From: an uncultured archaeon
Lineage (GTDB): Archaea > Iainarchaeota > Iainarchaeia > Iainarchaeales > 1-14-0-10-31-34
Direction of reading: 5' to 3'
DNA: 54,741 bases
NCBI GenBank assembly: GCA_964442255.1
Contig: CAYTYC010000007.1
Location: forward strand, 1-54,741
Position 1 is the first letter of the stretch, and every line of letters starts with the position of its first letter. A program made the position numbers and the translations under genes. Positions 3,876-21,600 of this stretch are shown piece after piece. The notes below the pieces were generated by a model. The model was not told the origin of the DNA and made no database searches. It saw only the letters and a list, made by a program, of their open reading frames with translations.

Positions 3876-6437
3876 CTATTTCCTCCACAGCACAAACAGC
3901 ACTGCCAAAAGCAGCAATGGAAGGAAGTAAACCGGAAGCCCGGGGACAGTCAAAAGCTTTTCGCCTGTTATTGTGAAGTAGGTGCGGACGGTTTCAGTGT
4001 CGGTTATTGAATAGGCTATTGCGGTGACTTTAACGTCAACCCTGTGGTCGCCTTTCTCCCATTCTTCTAAAGTGGAGCCAACATTTATGGTTGCAGGAAA
4101 AGTAAAGGTTGTGCCTTGCGGCAGAATTCCGTTGTAGCTGTCAAAAACAGTTCCATCCAAGGAAAACTCTATAACAATGTTGGAGAGGTCTGTGCCGGAA
4201 ACGTTTTTCACTTTAACTCCAACTTCAGTTTGCTCCCCGCTCCTTCCAATAATTGCCCTCGGAACAGCTTCAAAGTCAAGTATTCGGATTAAGTCCCCCA
4301 AAGGAGGCGCAGGGTTTACAGTAAATGGCCCGGAATAGTCAAGCTCGTTGCCTGTGCTACTGCTTGCCCAGCCGGCAACATAATAGGTTCCAGGAGGCAA
4401 ATCACTGCAAAACAATCCAACAGCGCAGTTTGTAGTGTTAAAAGTGCAGTCCGCTGCCCTTCCGGGCGGGCCGCCAATTGCACAGGAATAACTTGGGTCC
4501 CCGGAAAAATCGTCTGCATATCCCCCCTCGGGGAATAACGGGAAGTCTGTTTCATTGTAGTTACCCCAAACCGTGTCATTGTCCAAATAAAAATAAAACG
4601 TCATTGGATTGCCTCCACTGTCAGAGGCATTCCATTCAACGCCCAAAGAATCATCCACAGTGTCGCCGTCTGGTTTGATTACATTAATTGACAAAACACT
4701 TGAGCTTACTTCCCAAGGCACCTGCAGAGTGCTGCCACGGGGCGGGACTGCATTGTCTTCACAGTAAGCCTCCGCAACCCAGTGGTCCGGCTCCAAAGAA
4801 ATTGGATCAGATGCCGGGCCAGAGTCAACCCACTTCCCCATTCCATCTGGTGCAACAATGTCTGGGCCAGTATAAACAATTGTGCTTTCGCCTGGGGCTC
4901 TCTTTACGGTAAAGTTAACAAAAGCAACATCATTTGACGGGGCATCCGGGTCAACGCATTCAGCCCTAATCGCATGAATTTGCTGACCACTAGTAGTCAA
5001 GGAATCACAGGCAACCCAAGTGCCCGCCCCATCACTGTCGCATTCAATGTTTGAAATTTCGGGTGCCCTGTTAGTAACGTAATTTACTCCATAAACTGTT
5101 GCCCACAATTCAAAGTAATCAGCGCCGCCTTCAACAGGGACATACTTGGAGTAAACTGTAACCAGTTCATCCGAGTTCCTGAATGCCCAGGCGTCTTTTG
5201 TAAAGTCCCCGCGGTTGGTGCCCACTTTTCTGCCTGTATTAAATGAATCAGGGAAAGACACGCTGTCCGAAAAAAAGCCGTTTGGAGGACCTCCGTCCTG
5301 CTCTGTCAGCAGCCTCAAATAAGATGTTCCGGTCGGGCTGTTGGGCAGGGGCTCAGTCATCCAATAATTAATCAAGAAATCGTTGGAAGCTGTCGGCAGA
5401 ACAAACGGACCGTTAGAATAGGGGGACGCCCGGAGATAACCACCGGAAACAACTGGTTCAATTTCTCCAAGCGGGAAAGCTAAGGGGTTTCCGGCAGTAT
5501 CAAACCTCCTTGTCAGTATGTACCTGGGATTCCCGTTAAAAGGGTCATTTCCGACCCACACAAGGGCAATAACCCCGTCTGAGTTTACTGCAGCAAAAGA
5601 CCTTTCCGTAAGAGGGTTAATTCCATCAATAGGGGAAATAGTTGTTTCGCTGCCGTCAAGCCCGATTATTGATGCAGTCACTTCTTTAGTGTAATAATCC
5701 GGACAACCGTAATCATGGGTTACGGTAAAAACAACCCCACCAGAAGGCATAGGAGTTATGCCGCCATAAGCAGGAAAATCATTCGTTGTTCCAGTAAGCT
5801 GGATTTCGCCAGGAGGAGTAAGCAGTGAAAAAGAGGCGCCATCAAAAGAAAATATGGAAAGGTAATAAGTTGAATAGTAGGTCCTAGAAGGGCCGCAAAC
5901 CTTGTCTCCATGGGATTTCGTATAGAGCAGGTAAATATTGCCGGAATCATCAACAGCCGCATCATCAAACCCCATAAAATCCCCTATTGAGCCAGTGCCA
6001 ATCAAAACTGTTTCACCCATTAGTTGGGTTAAGTTTCCGGTTTGACTATCAAAATCGTAAACCTTTGCATAGAGCTTGTATTCAACTGTGTCCTCCCAGA
6101 AAACAAACAGTCTGTCCTGGGAGTCAAAAATTACTTTAGGGTTTAAAAACCGCAGACCTGGTGACTCGCTTATCTGGAACTGGAGAGAAGGCTGATTGGA
6201 TGAATCGTAAAGCCTTCCAACAATGTTCTGTTCGTATCCGGGGGTGGCAGTATATTCACTCCACGCGACCAAAAAGCTTCCGCCAGAAGCCAAAGCCAAA
6301 TCAAAGGAATCAAGCACATTGCCTTGGCTTTGGTCAATTTGGAACTCATCCAGAATAGTCAAATCTATTGTTTCAACCGCAGCTGAATCAGCGGCAAACA
6401 AAACCAAAAACGCAGCCAAAAACAATTTCTTATACAT
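3876..6437 (-). CDS. Large secreted cell-surface protein with Ig/CARDB-like domains and a C-terminal membrane anchor
   Basis: Signal peptide; beta-rich body; VKVKNVSG CARDB-like segment; C-terminal VPGLP + TM + RK. Confidence 0.75.
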   Translation of the reverse strand: MYKKLFLAAFLVLFAADSAAVETIDLTILDEFQIDQSQGNVLDSFDLALASGGSFLVAWSEYTATPGYEQNIVGRLYDSSNQPSLQFQISESPGLRFLNPKVIFDSQDRLFVFWEDTVEYKLYAKVYDFDSQTGNLTQLMGETVLIGTGSIGDFMGFDDAAVDDSGNIYLLYTKSHGDKVCGPSRTYYSTYYLSIFSFDGASFSLLTPPGEIQLTGTTNDFPAYGGITPMPSGGVVFTVTHDYGCPDYYTKEVTASIIGLDGSETTISPIDGINPLTERSFAAVNSDGVIALVWVGNDPFNGNPRYILTRRFDTAGNPLAFPLGEIEPVVSGGYLRASPYSNGPFVLPTASNDFLINYWMTEPLPNSPTGTSYLRLLTEQDGGPPNGFFSDSVSFPDSFNTGRKVGTNRGDFTKDAWAFRNSDELVTVYSKYVPVEGGADYFELWATVYGVNYVTNRAPEISNIECDSDGAGTWVACDSLTTSGQQIHAIRAECVDPDAPSNDVAFVNFTVKRAPGESTIVYTGPDIVAPDGMGKWVDSGPASDPISLEPDHWVAEAYCEDNAVPPRGSTLQVPWEVSSSVLSINVIKPDGDTVDDSLGVEWNASDSGGNPMTFYFYLDNDTVWGNYNETDFPLFPEGGYADDFSGDPSYSCAIGGPPGRAADCTFNTTNCAVGLFCSDLPPGTYYVAGWASSSTGNELDYSGPFTVNPAPPLGDLIRILDFEAVPRAIIGRSGEQTEVGVKVKNVSGTDLSNIVIEFSLDGTVFDSYNGILPQGTTFTFPATINVGSTLEEWEKGDHRVDVKVTAIAYSITDTETVRTYFTITGEKLLTVPGLPVYFLPLLLLAVLFVLWRK

Positions 6438-6600
6438 AACCGGCACTCTTTTTCACTCTTTTCGCTCTATTCGTTTGGTTTTAATGCATATAGAATAGGC
6501 AAGGTTGTTATTAAAGATTTTCTTTTAAATCTCGGGGGATTTTCACAGGAAATCAGCCCCCTTTCAACGCATTTAAAAGTGAAAGCAGGGTTACCCCTTT

Positions 6601-7569: not shown

Positions 7570-9168
7570 ATGGCTGAAGAAAAAGAAAAAACAGAATCCA
7601 ACGGAAAAAGCGCCGCAGAAGAAGGGGAAGAAAGCGGCGGAAAGGAAAAAGAAATAATAGAGTACGCGTCAAAAAACAACGCTGCAGTGAACAACAAAGC
7701 AATCGCGCTGCTCAAGGAAAGGGAAGACTACCGGAAAATAATCGACGAACTGCTTGAAGAAGGGCACTTCATTTTAAGCAAAGACGCCGTGGAAGGAAAA
7801 ATAGTCGAAAAAAAAAGCAAAATCGAATTAGTCAAAGAGGTTGAAATCCACGGAACAGGGTTCAAGCCTTTGGCAAAAGAAGTTGCACCGGATTTAAGGG
7901 AAATAAGGCGGCTCAACCTTCCGGAGCACGTGAACTCCGGCGGAAAAGCCGAAGACTTTGTGCAAATGTTCAGGGACAAATTCCGGGTGCTGGAAGGCGT
8001 GCTGAAGCAGAGAAACACATTGAATGCAAAGCCAATCAAAAGGCTTAAGGCGGTTCCAATGGGAAAAGAAGTGGAAATCATTGGAATGGTGCAGGAAAAA
8101 TTCACGAGCAAAAACGAAAATCTGGTCTTAAAACTCGAGGACTTGGAGGCAGAATGCATTGGGGTTGTCTCAAAGGACGACCAGAGGCTGGTGGAATTCG
8201 CGAAACGCATTCTCCCGGACAATGTGGTGGGAGTAAAGGGAAAAAAAATAAGGGACGGAATGATTGTAATCAGGGAAATAATGCTTCCCGAGCTTCCGCA
8301 AAAACCGTTCAAAAAAAGCGAAAGGAATTTAAGTTTGGCTGCTGTTTCCGACTTTCACGTGGGAAGCAAGCTCTTCATGGAAGAAGAATTCAAGCGGTTC
8401 CTGCTTTGGCTGAAGGGAATGACGGGAAGCGAAAAAGAAAAGGAAAAAGTGGGAAAAATAAAGTATCTGATGATTTTAGGGGATGTCTGCGACGGAATAG
8501 CTGTTTACCCCAACCAGCTCGAGGAGCTGGCGATAAAAGACATTTACGGGCAGTACGAGGCATTAAGCGAACTGCTTGTGGAAGTGCCGGAATACATTGA
8601 AGTGGTGATGATTCCGGGGCAGCACGATGCCGTGAGGTGGAGCGACCCCCAAAACGCGATTCCAAAAGAGTTTCTCCCGGAACTGCACAAGCTAAAAAAC
8701 TTTCACTTCATAAGTTCGCCGGGGTGGGTGGAGGTTGAGGGATTAAAGTGTTTAATGTACCACGGGCCCTCGATGCACGACCTTTATGCAAGCGTTTCAA
8801 ACCTCTCCTACAAAAGGCCGCACGAGGCAATGATAGAGCTGCTTAAAAGAAGGGACTTAATGCCAAGCTACGGAATGAAACGGCCCTATATTCCGGAAAA
8901 AATGGATTACATGGTTATAAGGGAAGAGCCCGACATTTTTTTGGCCGGGGAAATGCACCACAACTCCTACGGGCCGTACCGCGGCACAATGGTCATGAGC
9001 TGCGGAACCTGGCAGCTGCAGACGGATTTTCAGGTCCAGCAGGGGCACACCCCAACCCCGGGAATAGCCTCAATTTATGAAATGAAAACAAACAAAATAA
9101 TTGAAAACTATTTTTACAGGAAAGAAACGGAAGAAAAAGGCGCAGGGGAAAGGAATGAAAGAAGCTGA
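7570..9168 (+). CDS. polB: DNA polymerase D small subunit DP1
   Basis: OB fold (IIGMV..LEDL) and calcineurin-like motifs SDFHVGS, GDVCDGIAVYP, PGQHDAVR, YHG; directly upstream of DP2. Confidence 0.95.
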   Translation: MAEEKEKTESNGKSAAEEGEESGGKEKEIIEYASKNNAAVNNKAIALLKEREDYRKIIDELLEEGHFILSKDAVEGKIVEKKSKIELVKEVEIHGTGFKPLAKEVAPDLREIRRLNLPEHVNSGGKAEDFVQMFRDKFRVLEGVLKQRNTLNAKPIKRLKAVPMGKEVEIIGMVQEKFTSKNENLVLKLEDLEAECIGVVSKDDQRLVEFAKRILPDNVVGVKGKKIRDGMIVIREIMLPELPQKPFKKSERNLSLAAVSDFHVGSKLFMEEEFKRFLLWLKGMTGSEKEKEKVGKIKYLMILGDVCDGIAVYPNQLEELAIKDIYGQYEALSELLVEVPEYIEVVMIPGQHDAVRWSDPQNAIPKEFLPELHKLKNFHFISSPGWVEVEGLKCLMYHGPSMHDLYASVSNLSYKRPHEAMIELLKRRDLMPSYGMKRPYIPEKMDYMVIREEPDIFLAGEMHHNSYGPYRGTMVMSCGTWQLQTDFQVQQGHTPTPGIASIYEMKTNKIIENYFYRKETEEKGAGERNERS

Positions 9169-12100
9169 AATCCTGGCAAAGCCGGAAATAAAGGAATACT
9201 TCCGGAAAATAACCAAACAGGTTGACGAAAGATACTGGATAGCGAAAACTGCAAGGAAAAAAGGGCTGGATTTAAGCACGGAAATTGAGTCAGTGCCTGC
9301 GGCAGACCTGGCGGAAAGGATTGAAACCCTTGTGGGGCCGGAGGGGGTTGCGGAAAGGTACAGGCAATTGTTCAAGGAACTGAAAGGGGACAGGATGAAA
9401 ATCATTTTCCGGCTGGCAAAAGAAATCGTTGAAGGAAACCTCGGGGATTTGGAGGGAGAGGAGGCAAGGATTGAAAAGGCGGTAAAAGTCGGGCTGCTGG
9501 TGGAAACCGAGGGAGTTGTTGTTGCGCCGGTTGACGGGGTTCCAAAGGTAACGGTAAGCAAAAACCCGGACGGAAGCAGGTACGTGGACGTTTACTACGC
9601 CGGACCCATAAGGGCGGCGGGAGGAAGCTCAACCGTAATTCCGCTGATTCTGGCTGACTACGCGCGGAATCTGCTGGGACTGGACAGGTACAAGCCCACG
9701 GAAGAAGAAGTGGAGCGGTACGTTGAGGAAATAAGCATTTACCAGAACGAGGTAATCTCAAGGCAGTACATGGTTTCAGAGAATGAAATCAGGACAATCA
9801 TCCGGGGGTGCCCGGTGTGCATTAACGGAGTGCCGACAGTTGAAAGGGAGGTTTCAGTTTACAGGGACATGGAGAGAGTTCCCAGTAACCGGATTCGCGG
9901 AGGAATGGGGCTGGTGGTAAGCGAAGGGGTTGCACTCAAAGCAATGGTGATACTGGAATGGGCAAAATTGCTGGGGCTGAACTGGAGCTGGCTGGAAAAA
10001 ATAATCAAAGTGAAAAAGACAACGGAAAAAAAGGTGGAAATAAAGCCCAACCCAAAGTACCTGGAAAGGATTGCTGCAGGAAGGCCGCTTTTGGCTTACC
10101 CAATGCGGTACGGGGGCTTCAGGCTGAGGTATGGGAGAAGCAGGAACAGCGCAATAATGGGAAAAGCGATTAACCCCGCGACAATGTCTTTACTGAACGA
10201 CTTTATTGCGGTGGGAACGCACATAAGGATTGAAAGGCCGGGAAAAGCCGCACAGCTTTTTCCCTGCACATCCATCAACGGGCCCATAGTGAAATTAAAG
10301 GACGGGGAAGTGCTGAGGGTTAATTCAGTGGAAGAAGCGGAAAAAGTGAGGCCGCACGTGCAGGAACTGCTTTTTTTGGGTGACATGCTTGTTTCACTGG
10401 GGGACTTCAGGAAAACCGCGCACCCGTTAATGCCGAGCCCTTATGTAAAAGAATGGTGGGAACAGGAGGCAAAAGAAAAAGGCGTGAAAACCGGGGAAAA
10501 AATTGACGGAAAAAAGGCGGTGGAGTTAAGCGAAAAATTCGGGGTGCCGCTGCACCCGCGTTACCTGCATTATTACACCGCACTGAAAACAAATGAATTA
10601 AAGGAATTGGTGAAGTGGGTAAAGGAAGGGAAAAAGGTTGAAGAAAACAGGGAAGTGAAGGCCGTTGAGTTTGAAGAAAACCCTGCACTCAAGGAAATGC
10701 TTGAAAATATCGGGCTGCCGCACAAATTAAGGGAAGGAAAAATTGTTGTGGAAAAAGAGTTTGCGTACAGTTTCCTTAAAACTTTTGGGGCACTTGAAGG
10801 GGGCGAAGCGAAAGACGAGCCGGTGCCGTCAAAAATCCGGCACACAGAAACCGCAGGAAAGCAGGACTCGCTGCCGGGCGAAACCGGCAATGTTCTGGAA
10901 GTTTTAAGCAGGTTAAGCGGAATTGAAATAAGGGACAAGGCGGGTACTTTCATAGGCGCAAGGATGGGAAGGCCGGAGGCGGCAAGGGAAAGGACAATGA
11001 AAGGCAACCCGCACGTGCTTTTTCCAATCGGGTTGAGCGGGGGGCCGAGAAGAAGCATAAACAAGGCGCTGGACGCGGAACAGGAAAAAAAAATAAAGGT
11101 GGACATCGCGTTATTTGAGTGCCCGCAATGCGGTTCGCCCTCGCCCTTTGTTTTCTGCCCAAAGTGCGGGAAAAAAACAGTTAAAATATTCAACTGCACC
11201 AAATGCGGAAGAAAAGTGCAGGAAGAAAAATGCCCTGTGTGCGGGGGAAAAGGAAAACACAACGAAGAAAAGGAAATAGACCTGGAGGGAATAATTAAAG
11301 GGGCGCTGGAAAAGCTTAACACGAAAATGCCTGAACTGGTGAAAGGAGTTAAGGGGCTGATTAACGCGGGAAAAGAGCCGGAGCCGGTGGAAAAAGGGAT
11401 TCTGCGCGCGAAACACGATTTATACGTGTTCAGGGACGGCACAATGCGCTACGAGCTTTTGAATGCGCCGATAACGCACTTCAAGCCAAAGGAAATAGGG
11501 TTAAGTGTTGAAAAAGTGAAGGAACTTGGCTACAGCAAAGACAAAGACGGAAAAGAGCTTGCTTCGGAAGAGCAGGTGCTGGAAATATTTCCCCAGGACA
11601 TAATAGTGCACGAAGGGGCGGGGGAATGGATGGTGAGGGTCTCCAAATTCCTGGATGAACTGCTGGAAAGGTTTTATGGCGGAAAGGCCTTTTACAACGC
11701 GGAAAAAAAGGAGGATTTAATCGGGGAACTGGTTGTGGGGCTGGCTCCGCACACCTCCGCGGGAATAATCGGGAGAATAATAGGCTACAGCAAGGCAAAA
11801 GTCGGGTGGGGCCACCCTTACTTCATAATGACAAAAAGGAGAAACTGCGTGCACCCTTCCACCGGACTGGTTGTGTGGGATGAAGAAAAGAAAAAGACGG
11901 AAATAAAAAGAATCGGAGAACTGGTGGAAAAAGAGATATCCGAAAACCCGAAAAGGCTAATAAACGCGGACATGCATGGGACAAAAATTATTGAAAACCA
12001 CAGAAACCTGTTCGCATACCGCATTAACCCGGAAAACAACCGGCTGGAAAAAAGCAAGATAACGCATTTCTTTAAAGGGCGCGCCCCAGGACACTGGATA

Positions 12101-13147
12101 AAAATAACCACCAACAAAGAAAAGAAATTTGTAATGGACCCAAACCACCGCTTCATTTATCTGAAAGAAGGAAAAATAAAGGCAAAAAATGCAAAAGAAG
12201 CACTTGCAGGGGATCTTGTGCCCGTGGCATTAAAAATTCCCGGAAAAAATGGATTGCGGCAAAAAAAAGATTACGTTCCAGAAAAAGTTGTGTCCGTAAA
12301 AAAAATGTATGACAAAAAACCAAGGTATTGTCTGGAAATAGACAGCCGGCCAGAAATTGAGTCCAAAGTAATATTGTGGGGAAACAAACTGCTTCAAGCC
12401 AGGTGCGACGGAGACCAGGACTCCATAATGCTTTTGCTTGACCCCCTGCTGAATTTCTCGGAGCACTATTTGAGTGCCTCCAGGGGAGGAAGAATGGACG
12501 CGCCGCTGGTGCTGACTTCCGTGCTTAACCCCCTGGAAATAGACAAGGAAGTCTATGAAATGGAGGCCATAGAGCGGTATCCCCCGGAATTTTACAGGAA
12601 AACACTTGAGTTTGCGCCGCCGGCAGTTGAAATGGTGGAAGTGGTGAAAGACAAGCTGGGAAAAGAAGGGCAGTACACCGGGCTGAACTACACGCATGAA
12701 ACGGATTCATTTGATTTGGGGCCAAAGCAAAGCACTTACGTCAAGCTTGCGACAATGGAAGAAAAAATAAGGGCGCAGGCGGTTCTGCAGTCAAAGATAC
12801 GGGCATTGGACAAAAAGGACGCGCTGGAAAGGGTAATGCTCTCACATTTTATCCCGGACATAATAGGAAACACGCGAGCATATTCAAGGCAGACCTTCAG
12901 GTGCAGTGCCTGCAACACAAAATTCAGGCGCATTCCGTTGGTTGGGAAATGCACGAAATGCGGGGGAAACATTATTTTGACCATAGCGGAAGGGTCGGTG
13001 AAAAAATATTTGGCGATTGCAAGGCAGATAACCAACGAATACAATTTAAGCCACTACCTCAAGCAAAGGATTGACCTGATTGAAAAAGAGCTGGACTCGG
13101 TCTTTGAAAACGGAAAAGAACAGAGAAAACTCCACGAATTCGTGTAA
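9155..13147 (+). CDS. polC: DNA polymerase D large subunit DP2, intein-containing
   Basis: YYAGPIRAAGG, GGFRLRYGRSR, RMGRPE, GLAPHTSAG, KRRN..CDGD, GGRMDAPLVL and Zn ribbons; likely start ATG 9155. Confidence 0.97.
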   Translation: MKEAEILAKPEIKEYFRKITKQVDERYWIAKTARKKGLDLSTEIESVPAADLAERIETLVGPEGVAERYRQLFKELKGDRMKIIFRLAKEIVEGNLGDLEGEEARIEKAVKVGLLVETEGVVVAPVDGVPKVTVSKNPDGSRYVDVYYAGPIRAAGGSSTVIPLILADYARNLLGLDRYKPTEEEVERYVEEISIYQNEVISRQYMVSENEIRTIIRGCPVCINGVPTVEREVSVYRDMERVPSNRIRGGMGLVVSEGVALKAMVILEWAKLLGLNWSWLEKIIKVKKTTEKKVEIKPNPKYLERIAAGRPLLAYPMRYGGFRLRYGRSRNSAIMGKAINPATMSLLNDFIAVGTHIRIERPGKAAQLFPCTSINGPIVKLKDGEVLRVNSVEEAEKVRPHVQELLFLGDMLVSLGDFRKTAHPLMPSPYVKEWWEQEAKEKGVKTGEKIDGKKAVELSEKFGVPLHPRYLHYYTALKTNELKELVKWVKEGKKVEENREVKAVEFEENPALKEMLENIGLPHKLREGKIVVEKEFAYSFLKTFGALEGGEAKDEPVPSKIRHTETAGKQDSLPGETGNVLEVLSRLSGIEIRDKAGTFIGARMGRPEAARERTMKGNPHVLFPIGLSGGPRRSINKALDAEQEKKIKVDIALFECPQCGSPSPFVFCPKCGKKTVKIFNCTKCGRKVQEEKCPVCGGKGKHNEEKEIDLEGIIKGALEKLNTKMPELVKGVKGLINAGKEPEPVEKGILRAKHDLYVFRDGTMRYELLNAPITHFKPKEIGLSVEKVKELGYSKDKDGKELASEEQVLEIFPQDIIVHEGAGEWMVRVSKFLDELLERFYGGKAFYNAEKKEDLIGELVVGLAPHTSAGIIGRIIGYSKAKVGWGHPYFIMTKRRNCVHPSTGLVVWDEEKKKTEIKRIGELVEKEISENPKRLINADMHGTKIIENHRNLFAYRINPENNRLEKSKITHFFKGRAPGHWIKITTNKEKKFVMDPNHRFIYLKEGKIKAKNAKEALAGDLVPVALKIPGKNGLRQKKDYVPEKVVSVKKMYDKKPRYCLEIDSRPEIESKVILWGNKLLQARCDGDQDSIMLLLDPLLNFSEHYLSASRGGRMDAPLVLTSVLNPLEIDKEVYEMEAIERYPPEFYRKTLEFAPPAVEMVEVVKDKLGKEGQYTGLNYTHETDSFDLGPKQSTYVKLATMEEKIRAQAVLQSKIRALDKKDALERVMLSHFIPDIIGNTRAYSRQTFRCSACNTKFRRIPLVGKCTKCGGNIILTIAEGSVKKYLAIARQITNEYNLSHYLKQRIDLIEKELDSVFENGKEQRKLHEFV
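11846..12403 (+). mobile_element. Mini-intein (186 aa, no homing endonuclease) in DP2, ending in Arg
   Basis: Splits conserved KRRN/CDGD; begins CVHPST; block B MDPNH; block F YCLEI; ends LLQAR before Cys+1. Confidence 0.9.
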
Positions 13148-13155
13148 AAATTTGT

Positions 13156-13932
13156 TCAAAAAAGCTTGAGGATTCCAAGAAAATCAAGCGCAACCACGAC
13201 CAGCACGACAACAAGAATTAAAACCAAAAGCCAGTATGGGGAAAAGAAAAAGGAAGGGATTCCAGGCCTGGATGTTTTGGAAGCCGCTTTTGAGCCGAGC
13301 TTAAAAGATTCCGTTGTGTAATGCACCCAAGCGCCGGGCCGCTTCAGTTCCTGCATCAGCTCAGCCGTAACCTCAAGCCAGCCCTTTTCCCTGAAAGGCA
13401 CTTCATCGGATTCAAGCAGTTCCCCATCCAATGCGCTGAACACAAGCCTGTATGTTCCTTCCTGAACCGTCACATAAGAAACCCATCGGGGAAAAAGGAT
13501 TTCCCGGAATTCGGTGACGACAATTTTTTCTTTCGGGATGGAATGCTTCTGGGAAATCTTCAGGACCGCAAGCTCTTTCGCATTCCCGCTTGAAAGGGAG
13601 TGCTCAAGGATTTTGAAGCCGTACTTTGGCTTTGTTTTTGCGAGGTCCCGGAGAAGGGATTCATCCATTTTTTCGTGAAGCCCTTCAACAAGTTCCCCGG
13701 AATTTGGGTCAAAGGATTCCTTTCCCTTAACTGTGCGGTCAACAATCGGGGAAGATGCTTCATTTTTTTCCGAGTAAGCGTAAAAGGAAACAAAGAAAAA
13801 GGGCTTGAGGAAAAGGGAAAGCTCCGCCGCCTCAAATTTACGCCAATGCCTTTCCCTCAGCATGGACTCGATTTTCTTTACCGTTTCCTCCACGCCAAAA
13901 GAAACACGGAGGAAAGGTTTTTCAAAACCCAT
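13156..13932 (-). CDS. Hypothetical protein with C-terminal TM helix
   Basis: 258-aa ORF immediately downstream of sepF on the same strand; hydrophobic C-terminus. Confidence 0.75.
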   Translation of the reverse strand: MGFEKPFLRVSFGVEETVKKIESMLRERHWRKFEAAELSLFLKPFFFVSFYAYSEKNEASSPIVDRTVKGKESFDPNSGELVEGLHEKMDESLLRDLAKTKPKYGFKILEHSLSSGNAKELAVLKISQKHSIPKEKIVVTEFREILFPRWVSYVTVQEGTYRLVFSALDGELLESDEVPFREKGWLEVTAELMQELKRPGAWVHYTTESFKLGSKAASKTSRPGIPSFFFSPYWLLVLILVVVLVVVALDFLGILKLF

Positions 13933-13941
13933 AAGGAAGAA

Positions 13942-14295
13942 TTATTCCCTTCTCTTAATAATCTTTACATTTGCGGGAGTAATAAGCACCTTGTCGTGGG
14001 AAATCCTTGCGATGTCGCCGTTTATCTCCTCAACTCCGCCCCTAATGCCGCTCACCAAATCCCTCAACTTCAAGGCATTCCTTTTTGCGAGGTCAGAGAT
14101 GTTCAAAAGCACGATATTGCCTTTCTTTGCCTCCTCCATCACAGCTTCGGTGTCGGTGTCGGAGTGGAGGGTCATGGGCTTAACGTAGGCGTCGGCGTTC
14201 TCGTACATGGACTCCTCTTCAACGTCCAGGTTGTTCAAAAACTCCTCAATGTCAATTTCGTCGGTTTTCCTGAATAAAGATTCCATAAAAGCCAT
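13942..14295 (-). CDS. sepF: Cell division protein SepF (archaeal)
   Basis: Amphipathic N-terminus; acidic linker; GNIVLLNI..GDIARI..VLITP core. Confidence 0.9.
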   Translation of the reverse strand: MAFMESLFRKTDEIDIEEFLNNLDVEEESMYENADAYVKPMTLHSDTDTEAVMEEAKKGNIVLLNISDLAKRNALKLRDLVSGIRGGVEEINGDIARISHDKVLITPANVKIIKRRE

Positions 14296-14422
14296 TCCAG
14301 TATCACCCCAAAATTAAGATATAATATTTTTCCATAGAGGGTTATTTTAAGCATATTGGTGACGGGTTCGGAAAGCAAACAAAAACATTATTTTAAAGTA
14401 ATGCAGCAAAAAAATTTTTCCC

Positions 14423-15634
14423 ATGGGAAAAAACATATTCGAGGAACACATGCATAAGGCCTCTGTTTTTCGGGACCGAAACATGATAATGCCGCACTAC
14501 GTTCCCGAAGAGCTGCCGTTCAGGGAAAAGCAGATAAGGCAGACTGGAAAGGTTTTGGCCGTGGCCTTGGACGGAAAAAAGCCCGACAATTTGTTTGTTT
14601 ACGGGAAAGTGGGGACAGGAAAAACCGCGACACTGAAGAATGTGCTGAAACAACTGGGGGAAGTCGTGGAAAAAGGCGGTGCGCCCATTGACCGGACTTA
14701 CATAAACTGCAGGAACCACAACTCAAAATACAAGGTGATGATTAAGGCGGTGAAACAGTATTTTCCGGGGCAAAACTTTCTGGGCTTCAGCATCGGGTTT
14801 GTGCACGACAAGCTTTTGGAGTATGCAAACAAAGGAAGGCACCTTGTGCTTGTGCTGGATGAAATTGACAAGGTGAAGGACGTTGATGAACTTGTGTACG
14901 CTCTTACGCGGAGCAATGATGAACTGGAAAAGGGTTCGGTGAGCATCGCGGGAATTTCAAACAACCTGATGTTCAAGGAAAGGCTTGACCCAAGAACAAA
15001 AAGCAGTTTGTGCGAAAAAGAACTGGTGTTTCCGCCGTACAATGCGGAAGAACTGAAGGCAATTTTAAAGCAAAGGGTGGAGCTGGGGTTTAAGGAGAAT
15101 TCTGTGAATGAGTCTGCATTGAGTCTGGCCGCTGCTTACTCAGCAAAGGAAAGCGGGGATGCAAGGACAGCGGTAATGCTTTTGCTGCGTGCAGGGGAGC
15201 TGGCGGACGAGGAAAAAAAGGGAACGGTTTCCGAAAAAGAGGTGGAAAAAGCGAAAAGCAGGGTGGAAGAGGAAATAATCTTTAACATGGTTTCAACCCT
15301 TCCCGAACAGCAGCAGCTGGTTTTGAAGGCGGTTGCGGAGCTCACCTTAAGCAGGAGAGGGGTGAGGAAAATTACGGGTGCAAGCGAGGAAGGGGTGTTT
15401 TATTCGGGGGACATTTTCGAGAAATACCAGGCGATTGCAAGGGGAATGCAAAAGGATGTCGTCACCGCGAGATGGTACAGGCAGTACATCAGCGAGCTGG
15501 AAACATACGGATTACTTCTCACAACCTCTTCAGGAAAAGGAATCAGGGGGCAAACCAGGCTGATTAAACTTGGTTTTGACGCAAGGGGAATAAACCAGGT
15601 AATAGACAAAGAACTGGGTTTAAGGATTGCCTGA
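14423..15634 (+). CDS. cdc6: Orc1/Cdc6 replication initiator
   Basis: YVPEELPFRE; Walker A GKVGTGKT; Walker B VLDEID; FPPYNAEEL; GDAR; winged helix ending GKGIRGQTR. Confidence 0.97.
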   Translation: MGKNIFEEHMHKASVFRDRNMIMPHYVPEELPFREKQIRQTGKVLAVALDGKKPDNLFVYGKVGTGKTATLKNVLKQLGEVVEKGGAPIDRTYINCRNHNSKYKVMIKAVKQYFPGQNFLGFSIGFVHDKLLEYANKGRHLVLVLDEIDKVKDVDELVYALTRSNDELEKGSVSIAGISNNLMFKERLDPRTKSSLCEKELVFPPYNAEELKAILKQRVELGFKENSVNESALSLAAAYSAKESGDARTAVMLLLRAGELADEEKKGTVSEKEVEKAKSRVEEEIIFNMVSTLPEQQQLVLKAVAELTLSRRGVRKITGASEEGVFYSGDIFEKYQAIARGMQKDVVTARWYRQYISELETYGLLLTTSSGKGIRGQTRLIKLGFDARGINQVIDKELGLRIA

Positions 15635-18600
15635 TTAATTTGCGCAGTCTGTTGTTTCGATTCCGCCGAGCTCTTCAATCAAAACGTCCTCATTCCACCT
15701 GAAAACAGAGGAGTTTCCGGAATCCTTTACGCAGGCGTAACCCGCTTTAACCAAATCAAATACGTCCTGCAGCGTGTTCACCGTGTCCCCGGAACCGAAG
15801 CCATTCAATTCAACTGTTCCGCTTTGCTCCACACTGCCGCCTTCCGCATTCCTTAAGGCAACGGTTTTGAAGGCTGAAGTCCCTTCTTTGGGCTGGAATA
15901 GTTCCAGCTTCACCCCTGGCTCAAGGGAAGAAATGTAGGCGACTGAAGAAAGCGACTCCCATCCAGTGAGCTGCGGGGAAAGCCATTGAAGCTTGTATGC
16001 AGTTCCCGCAAGTGAAGCATTTTCCGAAGAAAACAGGGAAGAATCCGCAGAAGAAGTCAGTAAATCCTGCAGCACCCTTTCGCTTCCTCCGCTGAAGTCC
16101 CTGCACTCCGCGCCATGCAGCTGCCAGGAAAGAAGGCTGCTGCCAGCGGAAAAGCTTCCCTCTCCTTTCAAAAGCGAATAAAATACTGCTGCCGTTTTTT
16201 CTTCCCTGATTTCTTCAAGGTTAAGCTCAAGGAGAAGGGGGGAGGGAGTTGAAGGGAAAAAGTCAAGCGTGCGAGTTGCCCCGGAAGTGCTTCTCCTTAA
16301 ATCCAGCATTACGCCTCTCTTTTCCGAATTAAGTGTCTCCAAATCCGTGTACCGGGTTGAAATCAGGGTGGCCTGCGCTGGCTCATCTCCGGTTGTGTCA
16401 AGCGCCAGATAGTTTTCATTCAGGGGCAGTGGCCCGGAATTGTTTGCAAACCTTAAGCCATAGCCTTTGCGCGTGAATTCCTCCCCCTTTAAACCGATCT
16501 CCCCGTCAAAGGGCAGGTAATAAAAAACAGACTGTGTTAAGCCTTCAATGTTTCCTGCAGGGGAAAGCAGCCCAACGACAATATTTATTTTCCCCCTTGT
16601 CCCAAGCCCTTCGCCTTCAATGAAGTTTTGCTTCGCGGTTTCGCTGGAGAACTCCAGTTCAACGCTGTAAAGGCCTGCGTCCGGCAGCTGCCACGGGTAA
16701 CGGCGCACTTTTCCGTCCATTAGTGCGTTGAATAATGCGCCTCCGCTTTTCATTACAGTTGGCGAGCCAAAAAAGTCTGTTCCGCTGGTCCACCCTGCAA
16801 AGTCAAGAAAGAATTCCTTTGGCATTGCGTCCTGAATCAGGTAAGAGCTGAAGGAAAGCAGGTTTTCATCGCCTGTTTCATGGAATTCGTCAAGCCTGTG
16901 GGAAACAGCCATTAAAAATTGTGCGGAATCACAAAAAATAAAGTCTTCGTTTCCTCCATCACAAACCGTTAAATTGTCGGAGTTTAAGCCGAATTCATCC
17001 CAGTCCCAAGTGAAGTCAACCCGGGGAAGGGCGTTTGCGCCGTCACGGCAGTCCCCAGGGCCAAGCGCCGTGCCGCAGCCGCCGATACTGAAGCTGACAT
17101 CAAAGTTTGTTCCTTCCTTGTTCAATGCGCCCATTCCAAGGCAGGAAACCGAAGAAAAGCCTTCCGGGGAAATGCTGATTTCTCCCGGAGTGAGGACGGC
17201 CTTTGCTGGAACGGATTTTTCGCCATTAAAGCCCGCAGCCTCCAGCAATTCAAATTCAACCGCAACGCTTCCCCTTAACGTGGCAGAACCGCCAAATGTT
17301 TTTCCAATGGGGCTTAAAGGAAGCTTAACCTCCAGTTTTCTTTCCTCTCCGGGAGCCAATACGGGGGGGCCCAAGTAATCAACCAGGGCTTCGGCAAGCC
17401 GCCCGGAAGGGTCGGCAAATGCAGGGGTTACTGTAATTTCAAGCATGTAATCGGAAATGTTTTTCACTGTGAGCTGTTTTGCAACTGAATCCGCGCCCGC
17501 ACCTTTCTCCACTTCAGAGTGCACAAAACTGAACTCCAGTTCATCAGGCGAAAGCTCAATCAAGTCCCCCAACTTGGTTATCTCAACCCTGAAGGGAACG
17601 GAAACAAAAGAAATGTCTTCCCCTTCCGGGGCAGAGGAATCCTTCACTGAGACAGTTAAATGGTAAAGTTTTGAGGAAGACTCGCCTGCCTCAAAGGCTT
17701 CCCCTGAAAGGATTGCAGGCAATTCAATATCCAAGCCGGAGTGTGCGTCAATGTCCGCCTTGTTCAGCCTTCCGCTGTAAATTGGTGTGCCTTCACTTTC
17801 CGAGAGAACAGAATACATTGCAAGCCAGTCCAGTTCATCCGGGGAAGATTCACTTAAATCAATCAAGTAAACGTTAACGTCAAAGCTCCTGTTTAATCCC
17901 TCCAGGTAAGGGGAAATGTTTTTTGAGAGAAGCTTGAGGTTAAAGGTTTTCTTTTTCTCTAAAGCCTCTTCAGGGATGCCCGGGTAGAAAGAGAAAACAA
18001 GTGGGTTTTCATCAGTGAGAACAGTTTCGGATGAATCCGAAACCCTTATGCCTGAATCCGGGCGCGCAAAAATTGTTGCAGTGAAAGGCACAGTGAAGTC
18101 ATCCGAGAGTTCCTTTGTTTCCCCGAACGCAACATTGACTGTCAGGGTTCCGGAACGGGTTTTGTTTTCGGTCAATAAAAGGGTTTCATCCAGGTTAAGC
18201 ATTAAGTTCAGGTCAATTAACGCTGTTCCGTTCACAGGAATTTCTGTTTCCGCAAACTCCTGGAGAACGGCAAGCATCGCTTCCTCTTCCAAAAGTGCGG
18301 GGGATTCCGGATTGCGGTCAAAGGAAAGGGAAAGGGATTCAATTGAAATTTCTGCGGCAGAAAGGTTTTCAACCAGAATTTGCCTGGACTTTACGCCCGT
18401 GAAATCGTATTCCGCAAGGAATTCAAGCGAAGGAGGGCAGGAATCAAAGGGCTCGGGGCAGTACTCGAAAAGATAGGAGTCCTTTACTGTGAACGCCTTC
18501 TCAAACCATCCTGAAGTGCGGGGGTCAAAAACCCTGACAAGCACTTGGGAGGCGGGCCACATTGAGTCAAAGTTTTGCTGCACAATTCCAGTTTCGCCTG

Positions 18601-21600
18601 TTTCGGGCTGGGAAAACACCACACCATTAACCCAGAACTCGGTTTGGATTTCCTTAAGCGGCTCGTTGAATTCGTCTTTCACGGCCACAGTCATCTGAAA
18701 TGGCTCAAAAGGATTCAGTTCAGCCGGGGAAATTGTGATGTAAAGCTGTGCCTCGCCCTGAACCTTTAATGGAACCTTGCAGGAGGAAAACACGTCCACT
18801 GCAGGCAAAACATCAAGCCAGACTGAAGTTCTGTCGGAAACTTCCCCAAAGGAAACAGGGGCGAAAGAGGTTTTGCCTTCAACAGAGTATCCTGAAAGGA
18901 AATCAAACGCAAATTCCGGTGTTGTGCTCTCCCCTCCCGTCAGTTCGCCTGAAGCAGATTCACTTGGGGAAAGGAAGCCGTAGTCCCTGAAAACCAAGTC
19001 CTCCGCAGCCAGGCCGGAAGCTGTTTTGTTTGAAACCTTCAGTGCTGAATCTGGATTGTCTTCCGCGGAATTGTTAAGTGAAAAATTCCAGCCGTAAAGG
19101 CAATCCATTTTCACCTTATGCAGGGAAAAGGACTCTGTGCTGAAATCCTCGGGCTGGCAGCCCTGAACATTTTCCTTGGAGTAAAGGGATTCAGTGAAAC
19201 AAAACCCGTCTTCACTGCCGCCCTGGTTGCAGTTCATTTTCAAAGCGTAAACCCTTGCGCCGGAGTAAAGGAATTCGTTAAAGCTCCTGCCCGCAGAATC
19301 CCCTGGGTCAAAGAAAACGTTTTCCTCAGAATCATCTATTATGAGCATGCGGTAATGCAGCTGCATTCCGCTGAAATCCAGCACCCCTTCCTTCAGCGTG
19401 ACCTGAACCGAAACCATCAAAGAGCTCACCCTTTTATCACCCAACCCGCCCCAAGACAAAAGGGACCATTTTGCGGGGTCCGCGGAAGTTGCCCTGGATG
19501 TTTGCGTGTCGTTCTGGTGGTTTGCGGAGGAGTACTCCGCGGAAAAGTGGGTTGACCGCAGTTCGGACGCATTGAAGGGCGCCTCCACACGCGTAATCAC
19601 AAGCGGATCATCCGCAATTGCGCCCGGCTTTCCTGTGCGGAAATGCGATTCAATGTACGCCGGATCGGAGTCAAGGTCAAAAGAGGACAGGAACCTGAAC
19701 TTGTACGCCTTGCCTAACTCAAATTCCCCGTTTAAAACACGGCTGTCGGATTCATCCAATACTTCAACAAGCTTGATGTAAGGGTCGGTGAAGATTTCAT
19801 CCAGCGAAGAAGGCCTCAAAAGGACCTCCCTCTGCACGGTTATTCCCTTGGAGACATGAATTTTTTCGGTTGCGGTTGCGTCATACCCCTCCGCCCACAA
19901 GACAGCGAAAACCTCTGTTCCTGTTTCTCCCGCGGGAAAAAAGAAGCTGTCCTCGAATTCATTGAAGCCGTAATTGAACACCTGTTCGCCGGTGAAGGCG
20001 TTAAAGAAGTTTGCGTCAATGCCGCTTACGGCAATCCCTGACTCCGAGTCAAATACATTCAGTTTCAGGCCGCCTGTTTTCAGGCGCATTGCAACAGAGT
20101 ACTGGGCGGACTTGTTTTCGTCCACTAATTTTGTTGCGGAGTTTCCCTCATAATAGTTGGCTCGCGCAACCGCATAATAATTGCCTTTCCTTACCCCCTC
20201 AATTGTCGCTATTCCCGAAAGCAGGCTTGGCTTTGCAGCGGCATAGCCCGCAAGCCTGTTCGCTTTTTCCCCTTCACTTGCGCCGTAGTAAAGGAAAACC
20301 TTTGTGTCTCCGGGGGGAAGCTCCGCGAATCCTGTTTCCTCATTGAATTTTTTAACCGACACAACGGCCTTTCCCGGGAGAGGTGTCGGGGGAGGCTTGC
20401 AGTCCTCAAAGTCCTCCAAATCAGTTAAGCCGTCGCCGTCGTCGTCCCTGTTGTTGTTGCATATTTCTTTTCCCCAGCATTCCGGGTCATCCAGGTCAAC
20501 CAAACCGTCGCCGTCGTTGTCTTTTCCGTCACCGCACATTTCTTTGTACCAGCAGTCCTCGTCCGCCTCGTCAATTTTTCCGTCACCATCATCATCCAAA
20601 CCGTTGTCGCATATTTCAACAGGCACAGGGTCAAGGAAAATGTTCACGTCAGCCCCGGCATGGAAGTACTCAATTTCATCGAAAGGGTAATAGTCTTCCT
20701 TCATCGCAACAAGCAGGTAATCCCTTTCCTTCCGGACTGCAAAGCTCGCGAAGGAAACGTTTTCCTCTTTCCCAACTAAGCTGCCGTTCGCGTCCTTCAG
20801 CTGGATTTCATCGGCTGTGAGGGCTTCTTCAGTAATTGAATCCCACACCCGAACCTTGATGAAGTAATTTTCGTCAGGGACGCATACCCCTCCCTCACAA
20901 TTTTGCGGAATTTTTTCCACAAACACCTCGAAGATTGTGGGGACGTTTTTCCTTACCTCCAGCACTTCGCTTTCCGCGGGCCAGTACTCATCAGTTTCGT
21001 TTGCGTCGCTCACCGACAGGTAGTAGGAGCCGGTTGCAAGCCCAAAGTCTATTTCGCCGTAGGAATCGGTGTTAATTTCATGGACAGGCGTATCTTCAAT
21101 GCCTTCCTCGAAAACCAGCACCTCAAAAATTTTTTCCACCGGCTCTTCAGTGTTTGCGTCCAAAACCCTTACAAACACGCTTCCCGTGTCCTCCCCTGCA
21201 GGGCACTCCGGATCGTCCCCATCAATCAAACCGTCGCCGTCGTCATCCACCCCATTGGAGCACAGCTCAATAGGGTCATTCACATCGCAGTCAGGGTCCT
21301 CTTCGTCCACCCAGCCGTCTCCGTCATTATCTTCCCCATCATCGCAGACCTCGTCAAAGTACGCCGGTCCAGTGGATTTATGGTAAAGGGTTACAATCTC
21401 GCCGTCAAGCTTTTTCCTGTCAATTTCCCTGAATTTGCTGGTCTCATCCACGGAAACAAGGATTTCCCCGCAATGGTTGTCGTATTTGATGTTCAAAAGC
21501 CCTGTGGAAACCCATTGGGGGTTGGAGCCTGAGCCGGAAAGCACTTCAATTCCGCCTGTTGAAGAAGAGCACTCGAATTCGGCCTTTATCGCGTCAGTTA

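Follow-up and report, generated by a model that had tools for sequence, protein, structure and literature searches.

The window that we analysed, 54,741 nucleotides of contig CAYTYC010000007.1 from an uncultured archaeon of the Iainarchaeales (GenBank assembly GCA_964442255.1), carries the gene for DP2, the large subunit of the replicative DNA polymerase PolD, and within the catalytic motif of this gene lies a mini-intein whose last residue is arginine. According to the review of Mills, Johnson and Perler (PMC4031507), the terminal residues that have been described are Asn and, rarely, Gln, Asp or Glu, the side chain of which attacks its own carbonyl. Arg-ending inteins at this DP2 site form a large, previously undescribed clade found in DPANN archaea, Thermoplasmatota, Hadarchaeota and others; a search of open-access PubMed Central (PMC) and bioRxiv, outside which lie subscription journals and InBase, returned no paper on an Arg-terminal intein. 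Judged from its sequences, the clade is very probably competent to splice, and the insert in the window would be a working intein of the class 1 type in which the terminal Asn or Gln has been replaced by Arg. For the last step, we favour, tentatively, an active intein in which Arg plays the part of Gln by forming a lactam through its N-epsilon; that Arg itself is the nucleophile follows more weakly than splicing does.

The intein is a HINT-fold domain of 186 amino acids without a homing endonuclease, encoded on the forward strand at 11846-12403 and supported by the frame, Pfam and TIGR matches, a structural model and intein-free alleles. The original prediction had placed it at 11846..12406; the start stands, and the end moves to 12403, position 12406 being the last base of the Cys+1 codon. 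With slashes at the two junctions, the continuous frame reads HPYFIMTKRRN / CVHPSTGLVVWDEE...FVMDPNHRF...RYCLEIDSRPEIESKVILWGNKLLQAR / CDGDQDSIMLLLD, and the insert of 186 codons splits, in frame, the Asn from the Cys of the DP2 catalytic motif NCDGD. The junctions were set by alignment with intein-free DP2 alleles reading KRRN-[C/V/I/A/F]DGDQD.

All landmarks lie on the forward strand. Cys1, the N-terminal splicing nucleophile, is encoded by TGC at 11846-11848. Block B, Met-Asp-Pro-Asn-His at 12134-12148, keeps His101 at position B:10 and has Asp98 (GAC, 12137-12139) at B:7. Block F includes Tyr161-Cys162 (12326-12331), of which the Cys is F:4, and Lys174 (F:13; AAA, 12365-12367), 12 residues before the end. 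Arg186, the last intein residue (G:7; AGG, 12401-12403), is preceded by Gln184 (G:5) and Ala185 (G:6) and followed by Cys+1 (TGC, 12404-12406) and the D-G-D of the PolD motif (12404-12415 with the Cys).

By profile and fold, the insert is a genuine HINT domain. TIGR01445 (intein_Nterm) matches it with 28.6 bits, against a cut-off of 24.5, and Pfam Intein_splicing with 34.2 bits, slightly below its cut-off of 35.8. An AlphaFold2 model built from a 30-row alignment has a mean predicted local distance difference test (pLDDT) score of 93.9 and a predicted template modelling (pTM) score of 0.88, and Foldseek aligns it with the archaeal mini-inteins 6rpq, 5o9i, 4e2t and 2jmz and with the Pab PolII intein 2lcj at template modelling (TM) scores of 0.72-0.79 and a probability of 1.00. 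The nearest relative (genome G002, protein P0004) is 57% identical and ends in LLQPR. The window copy has no endonuclease, has Ala at G:6 and carries an Asp at B:7 that no other clade member has.

Compared with class 1 inteins, the insert has the expected nucleophiles (Cys or Ser at position 1, and Cys, Ser or Thr at +1) in Cys1 and Cys+1, and it sits in a conserved motif for which intein-free alleles that close exactly are present in 23 relatives (KRRN-[V/I/A/F/C]DGDQD). Its last residue, Arg186, is not one that cyclises by a described route, and the penultimate His at G:6, which is common but not universal, is replaced by Ala185, as had been noticed in the original prediction. In block B, the His of Thr-x-x-His is kept (His101) and the Thr is replaced by Asp98. 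The insert does not belong to class 3 either: position 1 is Cys, B:12 is Phe103 and G:5 is Gln184, and only Cys162 at F:4 fits.

The reading of the last codon as AGG in a continuous frame holds in the sequence and in assembled Logan contigs from two runs, which cover 11600-12700 with 0 differences, AGG included. One run (X1) is possibly the source sample, at a depth of 8.5; the other (X2) is a second sample, in which record 4 spans 12163-12700 at a depth of 4.8. Both belong to one study, and both are assembled contigs rather than raw reads. These two runs, together with the presence of Arg in more than 100 relatives, where it is written with six different codons, exclude a sequencing or assembly error, and it is the relatives that carry the greater weight. 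The same six codons speak against AGG being read otherwise than as Arg, as do the two conserved arginines of KRRN, which this gene writes as AGG and AGA.

Other placements of the C-terminal junction were also considered and rejected. Shifting both junctions by one residue (V...C / DGD) would leave no nucleophile at position 1 or +1, and other shifts would break the KRRNCDGD product. Asn180, the N of LWGN, was likewise considered as the true end; no nucleophile ever follows it, the next position being occupied by Gln, Gly, Asn, Asp or Lys, and many other inteins at the site have this Asn too.

Relatives with the same ending were found in several ways. A word-based protein search returned four more lineages ending in ...PR/C or ...LR/C, one of them with a LAGLIDADG endonuclease. 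An exhaustive phmmer search over 1.84 billion representatives, using the intein and 10 flanking residues as query and blind to the last residue, yielded 84 matches. Among 45 proteins with both DP2 junctions (phmmer matches and some cluster members), the intein ends in Arg in 20, Gln in 13, Asn in 10 and Asp in 2; after the removal of identical inteins, 43 distinct ones remained, 18 of them ending in Arg. Five further Arg-enders have one junction missing or a variant motif (P0011, P0013, P0026, P0045 and P0050). Every Arg-ender of this set has Cys at +1, though the regular expression allowed Ser and Thr. The names given by the National Center for Biotechnology Information (NCBI) to members of the clade include Diapherotrites, Pacearchaeota, Nanoarchaeia and Thermoplasmatota. 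Some DP2 proteins have CDSDED instead of CDGDED, namely P0013, where it follows an Arg-ending intein, and P0030, where it follows a Gln-ending one.

One genome per prokaryote species was then scanned with a degenerate DNA pattern for [Arg or AGY-Ser]-Cys-Asp-Gly-[Asp/Glu]-[Glu/Gln]...Asp-x-Leu-Leu-Asn-Phe. Of the two residues that this pattern admits at the last position, Arg and Ser, Arg was found at all 67 loci, and both junctions are present in 62. The Arg codons are CGA (26), AGA (18), AGG (8), CGT (7), CGC (5) and CGG (3). By record title, the hosts are Woese-, Pace-, Nano-, Parv- and Micrarchaeota, Diapherotrites/Iainarchaeum, Thermoplasmata/-ota, Hadarchaeota and Methanobacteriota. One locus lies on a 2.1-kb contig in a bin labelled Atribacteria (L037, JAPLGF010000181.1); it encodes an archaeal DP2 whose Arg-ending intein is near those of Thermoplasmata, at a nonsynonymous distance (dN) of 0.10 from L078, and the contig is probably misbinned.

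A metagenome scan left G:6 and G:7 open, fixing instead the upstream motif W-x-x-Q-h-h-[N/Q] and the downstream CDGDE; its reach is limited to subclades in which both are present, and the CDGDQ subclade of the window falls outside it. Arg stands at the end in 69 of its 70 loci (62 of 63 distinct C-terminal strings), with AGA the commonest codon and CGA second, and the remaining one has Gln. This exception, L115 (metagenome contig, match 1701-1742 on the reverse strand), ends in ...QIINFQ, where the last codon is CAA; over 511 residues it shares 60% identity with the Arg-enders L159 and L119. In its second LAGLIDADG motif DGNG has taken the place of DGDG, and its endonuclease is probably dead. 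The DNA patterns of both scans required Cys+1, and these sets are therefore uninformative about that residue. A hidden Markov model of the last 30 positions matched only DP2 in a small and biased set of 103 proteins, with no match outside DP2.

The original prediction had asked whether terminal Arg is conserved among DP2 inteins at this site, and had named its restriction to this one assembly as evidence against it; Arg proves invariant across a large and diverse clade and occurs in more than 100 related inteins. In a tree of the 43 distinct inteins, made by a quick IQ-TREE search with the last residue removed, the Arg label requires one change, and a group ending in Gln or Asn is its sister. 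The exact Arg branch is weakly supported (40) and the enclosing groups have 91 and 99; an Asn-ender, P0021, sits in the unresolved base of the Arg group.

Conservation within the clade was assessed in an alignment of 63 complete copies, comprising 62 loci of the genome scan and the window. Cys1, Trp84, His101 (B:10), Tyr161-Cys162 (F:3-F:4) and Arg186 are invariant in all 63. Thr is found at B:7 in 62 copies, with Asp in the window copy alone; the 25 other inteins of the site have Thr (21) or Ser (4) there and never Asp. The change from Thr to Asp takes two base changes from any Thr codon. The statement of the original prediction that the block B Thr is Asp is thus correct for the window and does not extend to the clade. 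His is absent from G:6, where the residues observed are I, T, L, F, A, M, P and V. G:5 is Asn in 32 copies and Gln in 28, with Met, Ser and Cys in the other three, whereas other inteins of the site mostly have Thr or Ser. F:4, invariably Cys in the clade, is variable in non-Arg inteins of the site (C 11, D 7, S 6, N 1).

F:13 is always basic in the clade, Lys in 41 copies and Arg in 22. Since Lys and Arg swap freely there while Lys is never seen at G:7, the last position needs more than a positive charge. A role for Lys at F:13 as the nucleophile, making an isopeptide with the C-terminus, had been raised when the first 18 sequences all had Lys; it was dropped in view of the 22 copies with Arg.

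Most of the clade is still mobile: 51 of the 63 copies are 464-512 amino acids long and carry a LAGLIDADG endonuclease, and 12 are mini-inteins of 169-205 amino acids. In each of the two endonuclease motifs, LG.Y.aEG and fdGDGsi, at least 90% of the 51 copies have the acidic residues. Nei-Gojobori ratios of nonsynonymous to synonymous substitution (dN/dS), taken over 54 pairs with dN<0.25, range from 0.05 to 0.26 in the splicing domain, where the median is 0.11; for the endonuclease, 48 pairs give a median of 0.12. Both point to purifying selection, and although the values are rough, with dS saturated (>1) in most pairs and branches shared between pairs, none is near 1.

The insertion site itself can be followed in close relatives. 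In the order to which the window belongs, 13 of 119 DP2 open frames are intein-sized (at least 1300 amino acids), and among 35 loci examined in the order there are 23 intein-free DP2 genes (L174-L177, L183-L187, L190 and L192-L204). These read KRRN-X-DGDQD, where X is V in 13, I in 5, A in 3, F in 1 and C in 1, and have no two-residue insert at the junction. In contrast, all seven intein-bearing alleles with the C-terminal junction inside the locus (two of the Arg type, including the window, and five of the Asp type) have Cys+1. Because Cys is rare in intein-free DP2 and constant with the intein, the Cys of the motif is needed by the intein, and not by the polymerase, in this lineage; its loss from intein-free DP2 may guard against re-invasion.

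Within the family of the window, the same DP2 site is empty in two genomes (G001 and G004), occupied by an Arg-type mini-intein in another (G002) and by Asp-ending inteins with an endonuclease in five (G003 and G005-G008), a mixture that is expected of homing inteins. The Asp-ending inteins of the family and of one further genome of the order (G031) are 484-493 amino acids long, carry LAGLIDADG and end in ...GNLAVYD / CDGDQD, with a penultimate Tyr and Lys at the F:13 position (loci L020, L025, L173, L181, L182, L188, L189 and L191).

It is on this body of evidence that the clade can be called very probably active. Residues without a known role outside splicing have stayed fixed where everything else has changed, and the 51 copies with a selected endonuclease point to repeated entry into naive DP2 alleles that work without the insert. 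Splicing is suggested also by the tie between Cys+1 and the presence of the intein, and by a DP2 gene that is single-copy and otherwise intact. An insert that no longer splices, tolerated by PolD, made harmless by a replacement of PolD with PolB, or kept as a permanent regulatory module, is, in our view, improbable; the tolerated insert had been offered as an explanation in the original prediction. An intein with Arg at its end is not removed by any known chemistry, the genome encodes a PolB, the window copy has neither an endonuclease nor a Thr at B:7, and the Pfam splicing profile stays slightly below its cut-off, all of which such an explanation would accommodate. It does not, however, account for the retention of Cys1 and His B:10 in 63 of 63 copies and Thr B:7 in 62, residues with splicing as their only known role, nor for a dN/dS of about 0.11, an endonuclease kept under selection in 51 copies, a Cys+1 that is kept only with the intein, or DP1 and DP2 genes that are otherwise intact, DP2 being single-copy. 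PolD is, moreover, reported to be the essential polymerase in Thermococcus kodakarensis and Methanococcus maripaludis (PMC4065339).

The competence of the window copy itself should be rated somewhat lower than that of its clade, on account of the Thr98Asp replacement seen in its sequence. A version of events in which the clade is active and this one copy is decaying, slow or partly inactive is compatible with either chemistry of the last step, and we consider it improbable. In its favour are the Asp at B:7, which is two base changes away and occurs in only 1 of the 63 Arg-enders and in none of the 25 other inteins, the lost endonuclease, and the statement of the review that the Thr at B:7 affects the N-terminal reactions (PMC4031507); set against them are the retention of all other invariant residues, a single-copy gene with an intact frame, and an organism that was assembled at a depth of 8.5 and seen in two samples.

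If the clade splices, the branched intermediate must be resolved with an Arg at its C-terminal end, and the steps that we propose are these. Cys1 would form a thioester with the aid of the block B His, and the N-extein would pass to Cys+1. The N-epsilon of Arg would then attack the carbonyl of the peptide bond between Arg and Cys+1, giving a six-membered N-amidino delta-lactam and releasing the alpha-amine of Cys+1, with which the S-to-N shift could complete the reaction; hydrolysis of the acyl-guanidine end would afterwards restore Arg. A basic residue at F:13 beside the G:7 side chain, together with a hydrophobic G:6, would lower the pKa of the guanidinium and enable the attack. The original prediction had offered a new splicing chemistry by Arg lactam formation; an active intein with an undescribed last step is what the evidence favours, and the lactam is our reading of how that step might run.

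Arg is likened to Gln because its N-epsilon and the N-epsilon-2 of Gln are equally many atoms from the carbonyl and both close a six-membered ring. The reaction has a counterpart in peptide synthesis, where the worst side reaction of Arg with an activated carboxyl group is said to be its closure to a delta-lactam (PMC7352207). As for the activation of the guanidine, in solved PolII inteins the block F His is reported to lie 3.4-4.1 Å from the terminal Gln (PMC8229266, PMC8175363), and in the Pho PolII intein His154 lies 3.4 Å from the carbonyl of Gln166 (PMC8229266). The Gln- and Asn-ending PolII inteins mostly have His at F:13, Lys174 of the window aligns with the His of ...YHNVIINENILTHQ in P0073, and the offset of 12 between Lys174 and Arg186 equals that between His154 and Gln166. 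Lys or Arg at F:13, standing at the position of a His near the terminal residue, would bring another positive charge up to the guanidinium, whose pKa would fall. An origin from Gln-enders is favoured by the sister group that ends in Gln or Asn, by CAA to CGA being one transition, and by CGA being the commonest codon in the genome scan; L115, a Gln-ender nested among Arg-enders, suggests that one active site can hold either residue. We would venture, with some hesitation, that Arg is a fifth kind of splice-completing residue, made nucleophilic by the neighbouring Lys or Arg, and that it arose from Gln-ending PolII inteins through CAA to CGA in mesophilic uncultured archaea.

A number of points weigh against this proposal. 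The guanidinium group has a pKa of about 13 and is a very poor nucleophile, and we know of no biological cleavage of a peptide bond by Arg cyclisation. The proximity of Lys174 to Arg186 is suggested by alignment and by the equal offset; Lys at F:13 is found also in the Asn-ender P0021 and two Asp-enders and is hence not specific to Arg; and rival chemistries would be served no less by the constant Cys of F:4 and by the Asn or Gln of G:5 (60 of 63). Splicing, too, has its weak points: the dN/dS ratios are rough, as stated above, the conservation of Cys+1 could in part reflect co-conversion of flanks during homing, and the window copy, with its Asp at B:7 and its lost endonuclease, may splice poorly. 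As PolB is also encoded, the essentiality of PolD in this organism is an assumption; the original prediction had listed a second replicative polymerase, alongside an inert construct, among the things that would undo it, and PolB is there, but its presence alone decides nothing. Finally, all host genomes are metagenome bins, and the loci of the genome and metagenome scans overlap in part (some contigs, being of equal length, are evidently the same records), so that the two sets are not independent.

The rival routes for the last step deserve to be weighed together with the lactam. The main rival, possible if doubtful, is that the intein is active and Arg only a helper, lining an oxyanion hole or stabilising a thiolate, while another group breaks the bond between Arg and Cys+1. 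The thiol of the invariant Cys at F:4 might attack in the manner of a cysteine protease, giving a thiolactone that is then hydrolysed; an N-to-S shift at Cys+1 might be paired with the shift at Cys1 and the peptide bonds swapped, the intein leaving as a thioester or a head-to-tail ring; or a water molecule might be activated. The constancy of Cys F:4 in 63 of 63 Arg-enders, against its variability elsewhere at the site, speaks in favour of such routes, and there are precedents for a reactive group at this place. The review describes Cys F:4 as a nucleophile in class 3 inteins and an Asp at F:4 that hydrogen-bonds Asn G:7 in the Pho RadA intein, which puts F:4 near the C-terminal residue (PMC4031507); C143 of Hedgehog is reported to form a branched intermediate (PMC12054796, 2025); and the ends of the HINT chain are adjacent, with a disulfide between Cys1 and Cys+1 described in Pab PolII (PMC8175363). 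Yet Cys F:4 is also present in the Gln/Asn-ending sister group (P0021, P0025, P0028, P0039 and P0086), and therefore did not arise with Arg, and no trace of such routes is known in class 1 inteins. A mere helper also leaves unexplained why Lys, which swaps with Arg at F:13, is never seen at G:7 and why the sole variant there is Gln.

Two further possibilities would move the cut elsewhere or assign it to something else. The true C-terminal cleavage might be the cyclisation of the Asn or Gln at G:5 (Gln184), leaving a mature polymerase with KRRN-A-R-CDGDQD; Asn and Gln are known cyclising residues, and their frequency at G:5 (32 and 28 of the 63 Arg-enders, where Thr or Ser prevails in the rest of the inteins at this site) would be accounted for. 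We regard this as very unlikely, given that three intact members, including the endonuclease-bearing L062/P0006, have Met, Ser or Cys at G:5, that residue 185 is no nucleophile and the acyl shift would need a large ring, and that intein-free alleles have no two-residue insert. Hardly credible, lastly, is cleavage after Arg by a host protease, which the original prediction had entertained, or, equally, an AGG that arose as an artefact of sequencing or assembly. Many proteases cleave after Arg, and nothing else was found in favour of a protease, which cannot ligate the exteins and would need a conserved partner across several phyla. The lactam formed by Arg itself stays our tentative choice among these routes.

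The gene that hosts the intein is otherwise intact. The two polD genes are adjacent on the forward strand, DP1 directly upstream of DP2. DP1, the small subunit (7570-9168), is identified by Pfam DNA_pol_E_B (53.7 bits) and Metallophos (29.5 bits) and by its translation, and its 3' end overlaps the long TTG reading of the DP2 frame. The DP2 precursor (9101/9155-13147, forward strand) spans 1348 amino acids when read from TTG at 9101 and 1330 in its database form (P0003), which starts at the ATG giving MKEAEILAK. It matches PolC_DP2_N, _central and _cat (PF03833, PF24844 and PF24846), scores 1408 bits with NCBIfam NF003103 (cut-off 1269), contains the NCDGD motif and lies next to DP1. A search of its own genome (1.28 Mb, 93.8% complete) found one copy of DP2, and PolB as a second replicative-type polymerase.

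Directly after polD lies a Cdc6/Orc1 gene (14423-15634, forward strand), with matches to Cdc6_lid, Cdc6_C and AAA. The 1.2-kb stretch between them (13148-14422) contains only an open reading frame (ORF) of 258 amino acids on the opposite strand, with no Pfam match, and could be a candidate replication origin region. Several other large ORFs of the window, all on the reverse strand, have no Pfam match at E<=1e-5: 15635-22138 (2167 amino acids), 22131-24032 (633), 24039-25775 (578), 41867-46042 (1391) and 3876-6446 (856). Elsewhere in the genome there are two other inteins, one ending in NLIIHN/S within an ORF of 747 amino acids (L003, G000:C9:42428-42934) and one, which carries LAGLIDADG and ends in GIIIHN/T, within a GTPase-like ORF beginning ...NIGIVAHIDHGK (L004, G000:C23:9877-10086). 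As both end in the canonical His-Asn, no general oddity is imposed by the host on its inteins.

The existence of an Arg-ending clade could mean either that Arg carries out an undescribed cleavage of a peptide bond or that the HINT domain has a second way to resolve the branched intermediate, and either would widen the known chemistry of autoprocessing proteins. The Arg lactam, if true, would be a new autocatalytic peptide-bond cleavage in biology. The clade would offer protein engineers a new type of intein, perhaps controllable through the pKa of the guanidine and probably active at moderate temperature, unlike the PolII inteins of Pyrococcus. With an intein inside the catalytic motif of a replicative polymerase, the rate of splicing could also gate replication.

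By its fold, its position and most of its catalytic residues, the element in the window is an intein; what it lacks is the defining feature of the known mechanism, a last residue that cyclises. Other departures from the norm offer a useful comparison. Amitai, Dassa and Pietrokovski reportedly described inteins ending in Asp in 2004. These, too, have an atypical terminal residue, at a working splice site, and the Asp-ending DP2 inteins occupy the same site and have Lys at F:13; they differ in that Asp cyclises through its carboxylate, a described route, in falling in the other half of the tree, and in having Asp at F:4. Class 3 inteins share the Cys at F:4 with the clade, but are described as having no nucleophile at position 1, Trp at B:12, Thr at G:5 and Asn at the end (PMC4031507), where the window intein has Cys1, Phe and Gln at the first three of these. 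Hedgehog/Hog and bacterial intein-like (BIL) domains have the HINT fold of the window intein (6tyy, 1at0 and 6tmm, weaker Foldseek matches) and process themselves with no need of a terminal Asn; their reaction is cleavage, or transfer to a different acceptor, without ligation of the flanks. Nor are they mobile elements that interrupt a catalytic motif, contain a homing endonuclease and have intein-free alleles as counterparts.

The closest parallel is provided by the Gln-ending PolII inteins of Pyrococcus abyssi, P. horikoshii and Methanoculleus marisnigri, which lie in the same host protein at the same insertion point (KRRN / C... / CDGDED). Their last step is reported to be slow (PMC4031507, PMC8175363, PMC8229266), and it proceeds by glutarimide formation, which is established for Gln. 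In sequence they are distant: phmmer aligns the window intein with 5bkh at an E value of 0.02 over the N-terminal part only, and alignments to solved PolII inteins end at about residue 132, before blocks F and G. They end in His-Gln and have His at F:13, whereas in the clade the terminal Arg follows a hydrophobic residue, F:13 is Lys or Arg, G:5 is Asn or Gln, and the Cys of F:4 never varies. They nevertheless have Cys1, Cys+1 and the HINT fold in common with the window intein (2lcj, 5bkh and 7oec are among the Foldseek matches), and, like the whole Arg-ending clade, they carry an atypical last residue with a nitrogen at the epsilon position.

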